From IMG/VR virus record IMGVR_UViG_2663762839_000012: a stretch of DNA of 7,388 nt. One strand, 5' to 3'. Positions within the stretch are counted from its first letter, which is position 1, and every line of letters begins with the position of its first letter. Below, in pieces: positions 4,129-4,457 of the stretch. Made by a program: the position numbers and the translations under genes. The DNA is from a virus. Its lineage: Duplodnaviria > Heunggongvirae > Uroviricota > Caudoviricetes. The notes under the pieces were generated by a model. It did not search any database. It had not been told where the DNA came from and saw nothing but the letters and a program-made list of their open reading frames with translations.

Positions 4129-4311
4129 ATGGCGAAGTATAAACGAATTCTGTTGAGGTTGACCATGAAAAACGGCCTTGAACTGAAAGCGCCTGTAACT
4201 GATGACATCAGCAGAGCACTGGCTTTTGCCATTAAGTGGGTGGCGGTCGGTGTTGCTGTGTCCCCGATGCTGTATGGGCTGGCAAAACTGGTCATTGCGT
4301 TGAAATCGTGA
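4129..4311 (+). CDS. Small tail-anchored membrane protein (60 aa), unknown function; candidate lysis-associated protein
   Basis: ATG at 4129 is preceded by GGGAG (4121-4125); stop TGA at 4309-4311. Basic soluble N-terminus ([20 protein letters not shown]...) followed by a roughly 25-residue hydrophobic segment ([27 protein letters not shown]). Sits immediately after the terminator and upstream of Rz. Confidence 0.5.
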
Positions 4312-4325
4312 AGGGAGGATTAAGC

Positions 4326-4457
4326 ATGTCAGACAAACTCATAACGCTGGCGAAGATCCTCTGTGTAATTGTCGGCATTTCATTTTCACTAATGCTGGTT
4401 GCTCTTTTTCTTTCCATGGCCTGGATGATGTTGTCTTCGTCGGGGCTGCTGGGGTGA
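4326..4457 (+). CDS. Very small hydrophobic single-pass membrane protein (43 aa), unknown function
   Basis: Strong RBS AAGGGAGGA (4311-4319) 6 nt before ATG 4326. Its stop TGA (4455-4457) overlaps the Rz GTG start (4454-4456) as GTGA, implying translational coupling. Sequence [43 protein letters not shown] is almost entirely one transmembrane helix. Confidence 0.5.

Follow-up and report, generated by a model that had tools for sequence, protein, structure and literature searches.

The window analysed here, a 7,388-nt stretch from a tailed-phage record (Caudoviricetes; IMG/VR record IMGVR_UViG_2663762839_000012), carries two tiny open reading frames (ORFs) on its plus strand, between the remnant of an endolysin gene, R, and the spanin genes Rz/Rz1. 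They are designated ORF1 (60 aa; 4129-4311, ATG 4129, TGA 4311; phrog_1115; WP_001151823.1) and ORF2 (43 aa; 4326-4457, ATG 4326, TGA 4457; phrog_4906; WP_001280932.1). Comparison with their relatives indicates that both are real, conserved genes for single-helix membrane proteins, and we tentatively favor a role of their products as dispensable, late-expressed inner-membrane modulators of lysis. An earlier note on this DNA had described, at these coordinates, a terminator followed by two tiny genes with a strong ribosome-binding site each, and the sequence features confirm this description: ORF1 is preceded by the strong Shine-Dalgarno (SD) motif AGGGAGAA (4120-4127), and ORF2 by the likewise strong motif AGGGAGGA (4312-4319), 6 bases before its start. 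RefSeq lists both products as hypothetical proteins.

Hydropathy bears out the assignment of a basic N-terminus plus one helix to ORF1 and of little else than a helix to ORF2. The N-terminal flank of the ORF1 product has a net charge of +5 and is followed by a single hydrophobic segment (residues 38-56; Kyte-Doolittle (KD) score 1.88); the protein is predicted to be N-in and tail-anchored, i.e. a basic N-terminal segment followed by a C-terminal transmembrane helix. The AlphaFold2 model of ORF1 consists of helices only, with a long helix at residues 23-59 (predicted local distance difference test score, pLDDT, ~85) and an N-terminal helix of low confidence. The transmembrane helix is rich in small residues (G41xxxS45), and the C-terminus (...IALKS) leaves a 4-residue tail with one Lys. 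For ORF2, the hydrophobic core spans residues 11-29 (KD 2.89) and nearly the whole protein forms one long helix, with an uncharged C-terminus (...SSSGLLG).

Conservation was assessed in 77 loci chosen through ORF2 and 80 loci chosen through ORF1, in each case among the matches listed. ORF1 is intact in 75/77 and ORF2 in 72/80, and together with the codon-position bias of ORF1 these counts rule out the objection that the two might be chance ORFs. Among 16 distinct ORF1 sequences the ratio of nonsynonymous to synonymous polymorphism (pN/pS) is 0.12, and the variable sites fall 4/1/15 on the three codon positions (p = 3e-4), which points to strong purifying selection. The ORF2 frame is the sole frame open in 16/16 variants, its length is fixed at 43 codons down to 65-77% amino-acid identity, and conservation is strong over the first 27 residues (pN 0.02-0.1); with a pN/pS of ~0.4 overall (range ~0.2-0.6) and 0.3-0.5 in the C-terminal half, selection appears weaker on ORF2 than on ORF1.

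ORF1 may also be translated into a shorter, 48-aa product (4155-4311, plus strand), for which an SD-like GAGG (4155-4158) precedes the in-frame Met13 codon (ATG 4165). Many gene callers report this form, and ORF1 paralogues that have different residues there still possess a G-rich SD-like motif, followed 5-9 nt later by an in-frame ATG. The two candidate starts, each with an SD-like motif, lie 12 codons apart, a spacing far wider than that of the S105/S107 starts or of the 68/71 starts of S21.

The ORF2 stop overlaps a GTG in the Rz frame (GTGA, 4454-4457), as the earlier note had pointed out; the true start of Rz is ambiguous. The Prokaryotic Genome Annotation Pipeline (PGAP) places it at ATG 4469, and a start at GTG 4454 retains an Asn-Arg motif that other Rz variants have in common at their N-termini. 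From either start, the gene for the i-spanin Rz extends on the plus strand to 4927 (PF03245, expectation value (E) 7e-50; phrog_13), with the gene for the o-spanin lipoprotein Rz1 embedded in it (4680-4865, plus strand; PF06085, E 1.5e-19). In the junction comparison, the gene after ORF2 always begins 0-11 nt later. The end of ORF2, GGGGTGA, is invariant, and the C-terminal half before it varies freely, even when frameshifted, with the position of the stop kept; when its upstream neighbor differs, ORF2 gains a new start context. The Rz frame is open throughout the ORF2 region (4304-4453) and contains no start codon there, and in some relatives a TTG leads gene callers to predict fusions of 70-207 aa (e.g. 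P0098, and a 207-aa ORF in locus L091, 2479-3102). An Rz extended N-terminally through the ORF2 region was rejected, as there is no conserved start and the ant-type variants contain a stop; the idea that ORF2 arose from the N-terminal helix of Rz by duplication and divergence was also rejected, as no alignment was found.

Of 5426 complete E. coli genomes, 1039 carry the 329-bp ORF1-ORF2 pair at >= 80% coverage, and O157:H7 is among them. The arrangement R-ORF1-ORF2-Rz was found at ~95% nucleotide identity in phages PhiR5_2 and PhiR12_x, which plaque on K-12 or E. coli C, and 66 of the 77 IMG/VR loci have the order S21-R-ORF1-ORF2-Rz. Upstream of ORF1, intact copies encode an S21-like pinholin of 68 aa and then a lysozyme of 177 aa whose N-terminal signal-anchor-release (SAR) domain is rich in Gly, Ala and Ser, so that by its gene content the host cassette is of the phage-21 type. 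According to a published survey, almost all Shiga-toxin (Stx) phages pair a SAR endolysin with a pinholin (PMC8136144).

The two genes also occur apart, and the obligate pair implied by the earlier note is not upheld. Salmonella prophages carry ORF1 alone, 11 nt before Rz, in a cassette with a Phage_holin_2_3 holin and a SAR lysozyme, and in phage GER2 an ORF1-type gene likewise stands directly before Rz. ORF2 occurs without ORF1 in the arrangement R-ant-ORF2-Rz, where ant is an antirepressor gene whose stop overlaps the ORF2 start; this arrangement is the one in most Stx phages and was found in Stx1a and Stx2a phages, in phi24B (L172, 1801-1929), and in the Sakai prophages Sp6, Sp10 and Sp11, with positions of ORF2 between ant and Rz also noted in L094 (2360-2509), L175 (1625-1771; Sakai ECs_1966) and L179 (1650-1796; ECs_5730). 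By tblastn, ORF2 was matched in 276 phage records, phi24B, Min27 and Sakai prophages among them; usually the record annotates no feature for it, as is the case in phi24B. In these records it is seen only directly upstream of a lambda-type Rz, whatever precedes it.

The gap between endolysin and Rz is indeed a known mosaic slot and not normally empty, and with ant in this position in Stx phages the rule that nothing separates endolysin and Rz does not hold; in K-12 Qin, rrrQ overlaps rzpQ with nothing between them. Other small occupants of the slot comprise a 44-aa one-helix gene (phrog_6632) that replaces ORF1 and a second copy of ORF1 residues 23-60, whose GTG start overlaps the ORF2 stop. 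A peptide of 28 aa, MSAELIRAMAFAIRIVAIAVLVWTIRWW, is encoded there as well; it is a truncated ORF1-family member belonging to an 'RWW' subtype (phrog_4493, E 6e-6). In the O104:H4 strain 2009EL-2071 (L092, 2286-2849) four tiny one-helix genes stand in a row between lysozyme and Rz, i.e. the phrog_6632 type, ORF2, the ORF1 C-terminal duplicate and the 28-aa RWW peptide, and the same pattern was found in ST131 (H74-H84). Phage phiSTEC1575-Stx2k carries an RWW-type ORF1 homologue, also matching phrog_4493, after canonical holins and an M15 endolysin (L173, 1780-2137). In L173 this gene is followed by an overlapping gene for a 60-aa predicted lipoprotein (lipobox LVGC; phrog_7528, unknown function), and Rz/Rz1 were not recognised among the L173 genes examined.

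Searches of Pfam and NCBIfam (both at E <= 1) and of the PDB returned nothing usable for ORF1 or ORF2, and PADLOC returned no family for the two and three relatives at E <= 1. In PHROGs, ORF1 matches phrog_1115 over its full length (E 2.6e-42; residues 1-60 on 8-67/67) and also phrog_4493 (E 4.3e-30), and ORF2 matches phrog_4906 over its full length (E 2.1e-23; residues 1-43 on 7-49/49); all three families are annotated "unknown function". A profile search with the ORF1 alignment against 1.84 billion representative proteins gave 20 matches, all small and uncharacterised except one, to a repeat in a 4413-aa protein, which was rejected as spurious. Two scans of 185,579 species-representative genomes revealed no confirmed relative (147 pattern matches, unconfirmed by tblastn, and then 0), no 'RISVEA' paralogue type was found in the viral-contig scan, and literature queries by accession, locus tag and PHROG identifier returned nothing on ORF1 or ORF2. 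The homologues of ORF1 come from Escherichia and Salmonella, and the family appears to be small and narrow.

That neither protein can be assigned to a characterised holin family, as the earlier note held, is borne out by these searches and by the negligible similarity to S21: in a single comparison ORF1 shares a 7-residue patch with S21 (E 0.04), and PF04971 was not matched. A relation of the ORF1 helix to the second transmembrane domain (TMD2) of pinholins, hinted at by P0119, was rejected for the same 7-residue patch. P0119 is a chimeric protein, from one 554-nt European Nucleotide Archive (ENA) contig, in which the N-terminal half of an S21-like holin is joined to the last 23 residues of ORF1; it probably arose through a deletion at a microhomology (SQW/IKW-VAVG) or through faulty assembly. 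Of the proposal of a holin/antiholin pair, one part stands: the proteins are small, have a transmembrane helix and are encoded in a lysis cassette between R and Rz; their lack of membership in any described holin family of Pfam, NCBIfam or PHROGs speaks against it, and so does their C-terminus, discussed below. Spanin features are absent as well, i.e. neither ORF encodes periplasmic residues past the helix or a lipobox.

We consider ORF1 and ORF2 unlikely as primary hole-formers, and the reading that we tentatively favor has them as two independent, non-essential accessory genes of pinholin/SAR endolysin/Rz-Rz1 cassettes. Because no plus-strand promoter follows the terminator upstream of ORF1, their expression, together with that of S, R and Rz/Rz1, should need the Q-modified polymerase, and they would be transcribed solely within the Q-antiterminated late transcript that reads through the hairpin at 4063-4095. 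ORF2 would be translated in a tight chain with Rz, with its stop overlapping or abutting the Rz start, and both products would insert in the inner membrane as single-helix peptides. Acting in the bilayer in the lysis phase, they may influence the timing or sharpness of depolarisation and the release of the tethered endolysin, or alternatively how the Rz spanin is deployed. Precedents for such modulators are P2 LysA, encoded at the equivalent position, and the Mu releasin.

Several observations weigh against a role in lysis. The gap between endolysin and Rz also takes genes unrelated to lysis, namely ant and, in L059 (3496-4431), a gene for a 311-aa DNA-methyltransferase-like protein, and position alone is therefore weak evidence; since the latter gene sits between ORF2 and Rz, the ORF2-Rz junction itself takes insertions. 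Some ORF1 homologues are located after tail-fibre genes or at a prophage end (tandem paralogues). The charged C-terminal tail typical of holins is lacking in both proteins. Constraint on ORF2 is only moderate (codon-position test, p = 0.13), and the gene is frameshifted in 7/80 loci. Furthermore, lambda, phage 21 and K-12 Qin lyse or are built without ORF1 and ORF2.

Immediately upstream of ORF1, an intrinsic terminator was predicted 24-33 nt before the gene (24 nt upstream of its SD motif), with a 13-pair hairpin (4063-4095; 4063-4105 with T-runs) that is followed by GTGTTTCTGA and scored terminator-like; because a T-run follows on the minus strand also, the hairpin is called bidirectional. 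Where its stem differs between E. coli, O157 and Salmonella, pairing is kept through wobble pairs and compensatory changes. Every ORF1-type gene examined is preceded by a strong hairpin with T-runs on both sides, ending ~25-35 nt before the start (~60 nt in L084 and L174, with a 25-nt leader insertion), even where the hairpins are unrelated in sequence and the genomic contexts differ. In L084 (Salmonella; 3985-4003) the insertion, which lies upstream of ORF1, introduces a new SD motif and a mini-ORF of 8 codons that ends in a TGA overlapping the ORF1 GTG start; phage GER2 (L174) has the same leader. A 17-codon ORF before the terminator in the window (4001-4054) was rejected, since it is not conserved in Salmonella.

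The terminator could also serve an antisense RNA, and ORF1 could then encode a small membrane-damaging peptide, as the protein part of a module resembling type I toxin loci or sar/ant, in which an antisense RNA over the ORF1 start keeps ORF1 silent in lysogens or delays its expression after induction. We regard this as unlikely, with evidence on both sides. The minus strand carries TGGTCA-18-TATACT (4165-4136) inside ORF1 codons 3-13, the sole promoter-like site in the 1.8 kb examined (3500-5300), where a single match is nevertheless within chance (1.5 expected). A transcript from this site is predicted to be ~70-75 nt long (~72 nt; 4055-4129, minus strand), with a 5' hairpin, an A-rich linker and the terminator, and would run across the ORF1 SD motif and start to end at the hairpin. 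Eight family members, from four diverged lineages that have unrelated hairpins and different genomic contexts, retain both TATACT (plus-strand AAG TAT A, encoding Lys-Tyr) and, 35-65 nt downstream of it, a terminator. A 49-nt block (4136-4184) is identical in the E. coli and Salmonella ORF1, whereas elsewhere 45% of third positions differ (0/16 changed in codons 3-18 vs 19/42 in codons 19-60; p = 5e-4). However, this block contains, besides the promoter-like site, the SD-like motif and in-frame Met13 of the possible second ORF1 start, which can also explain its conservation. The imperfect pair of the hairpin would be U.G in a plus-strand RNA and C.A in a minus-strand one, which argues for selection as a plus-strand hairpin. 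In one lineage, comprising 18/77 of the ORF2-selected loci (L095 and 17 others), a TAT to TGT change (Y4C in ORF1) alters the putative -10 element; the terminator stem of this lineage has changed as well (G to A), so that both putative regulatory elements are altered. In size both ORFs resemble the hydrophobic ORFs of ~60 aa or less of type I toxins, but no sense promoter was found for the 'toxin', i.e. no plus-strand sigma-70-like site in 3500-5300. Rfam gave no significant family match for the candidate RNA, and no matching Hfq-bound RNA is present in the O157 Sakai table, for which the three prophages checked carry ant-ORF2 and not ORF1. The Sakai Hfq peaks EcOnc11, EcOnc24 and EcOnc33 were rejected as evidence, as they are located elsewhere, and so were the Pas small RNAs (sRNAs), which are sited upstream of the holin. 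Short convergent sRNAs are documented in lambdoid late operons (PMC4104026).

Rather improbable, in our assessment, is that ORF2 is mainly a translated spacer that delivers ribosomes to Rz, with a peptide of little function. R overlaps Rz when there is no insertion, as rrrQ directly overlaps rzpQ in K-12 Qin; where foreign DNA (the ant or ORF1 modules) separates the two, ORF2 would restore this delivery. Its place as the last gene before Rz whatever precedes, its invariant end after a freely varying C-terminal half, and its modest pN/pS would all suit such a spacer. Conversely, the strongly conserved N-terminal 27 residues, which form a proper transmembrane helix, and the exact 43 codons kept in diverged variants argue against a mere spacer, and since other Rz types after ORF2 have their own SD motif and ATG, coupling is not obviously needed. 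Very unlikely, in turn, is that ORF1 and ORF2 are lysogenic-conversion or superinfection-exclusion morons that protect the lysogen, e.g. by blocking DNA entry. Their anatomy is moron-like, with an own terminator, they occupy several prophage positions (the tail-fibre end included), and they are patchily distributed in E. coli and Salmonella prophages. However, with the terminator immediately upstream and no sense promoter, expression in the lysogen is unlikely; ORF2 is strictly tied to Rz, and the zero matches in PADLOC tell further against this reading. The exclusion or abortive-infection role that the earlier note had offered is, on these grounds, not supported. A further proposal, which we consider doubtful at best, is that the tiny transmembrane peptides, in fast-evolving sets of one to four (the ORF1 family with its truncated forms, ORF2, and phrog_6632), constitute a new class of lysis-timing regulators for pinholin/SAR-endolysin systems, with ORF1 gated by antisense RNA. 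The weight that we leave unassigned allows for ORF1 and ORF2 having no function at all.

In the window itself, the lysis cassette is dead, with the holin missing and the endolysin truncated, and because the cassette is defunct ORF1 and ORF2 are probably silent passengers there. The prophage fragment starts at ~3229 (plus strand) with a DUF826 gene (3235-3504, plus strand), followed by the last 120 codons of the lysozyme gene R (3610-3972, plus strand; PF00959, E 4e-16; phrog_7), i.e. the 3' two-thirds of a SAR endolysin gene of the phage-21/Stx type. The R remnant must be regarded as inactive, because the SAR anchor and the region of the catalytic Glu are deleted; relative to intact prophages, ~750 bp are gone, comprising the holin gene, ydfR and the first ~45 codons of R. 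A small terminase subunit gene lies downstream of Rz/Rz1. Upstream of the fragment, on the minus strand, are aceA and aceB (185-3138), and the remnant is fused to the aceB upstream region (~3229; lost stretch at 3505-3610). This aceB-prophage junction is absent from all 5426 complete E. coli genomes, and the source of the window could be an unusual strain or a chimeric assembly. Matches to the Rfam family naRNA4, a nucleoid-associated RNA derived from repetitive extragenic palindromic (REP) elements, were found at 23-158 on the minus strand, downstream of aceA (one of them at 81.8 bits, above the gathering threshold).

Already known are the cataloguing of ORF1 and ORF2 as hypothetical families and the slot as a mosaic site. 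New, as far as the comparisons indicate, are three points: Stx phages almost universally carry ORF2, usually without annotation and in every case before Rz; tiny one-helix genes that derive from ORF1 can stand as arrays in the slot; and a terminator together with a possible antisense promoter forms a conserved layout of the ORF1 unit. The timing of lysis determines burst size in Stx phages and controls the release of Shiga toxin. Given this role, the conserved and mostly unannotated 43-aa ORF2 before Rz is worth a genetic test; if the peptides were a new regulator class, they would affect the timing of Shiga-toxin release, as ORF2 is present in nearly all Stx phages. The ORF1-type modules furthermore provide a compact example of small membrane genes that move, duplicate and truncate inside lysis cassettes, and in the clinically important lineages O104:H4 and ST131 up to four such genes form an array. 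Should the genes be inert, the value of these observations is better annotation only.

Among known systems, P2 LysA is an accessory, non-essential lysis-timing membrane protein encoded between the endolysin gene K and the spanin genes lysB/lysC. ORF1 and ORF2 resemble it as membrane-protein genes, presumably on the same late transcript, between the endolysin and the Rz/Rz1 equivalents, and differ from it in that LysA is much larger with several membrane helices, whereas they have a single helix; similarity to annotated proteins was not found in Pfam or NCBIfam, and in PHROGs with families of unknown function only. Like S21 with its 68/71 starts, ORF1 is a small membrane protein of the same cassette with possibly two starts that differ in N-terminal positive charge; unlike S21, with its two helices and charged C-terminal tail, it has one helix and a 4-residue tail. 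The Mu releasin gp25 regulates a SAR endolysin (PMC9239132), and ORF1 and ORF2 share with it the position of a small membrane protein beside a SAR endolysin, so that the membrane-tethered enzyme is a plausible site of action; no homology to gp25 was detected. The M15 endolysin of Stx-phage cluster C is described as canonical and without a signal peptide (PMC8136144), and because an ORF1-type gene also adjoins an M15 endolysin, ORF1 cannot be SAR-specific.

With hok/sok, symE/symR and the P22 sar RNA/ant pair, ORF1 has in common a hydrophobic ORF of <= 60 aa and a candidate antisense RNA over the ribosome-binding site that ends at an upstream terminator, and like type I toxin-antitoxin loci its copies can be tandem or truncated; unlike these loci, ORF1 has no promoter of its own, and its antisense RNA is predicted only and has no Rfam match. 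With the morons and convergent short sRNAs of lambdoid late operons (PMC4104026), the two genes share the character of extra DNA with its own terminator in a Q-dependent operon, patchy in distribution and mosaic in arrangement. Classical morons, however, are expressed in the lysogen from a sense promoter of their own, and no such promoter is seen for ORF1 and ORF2.

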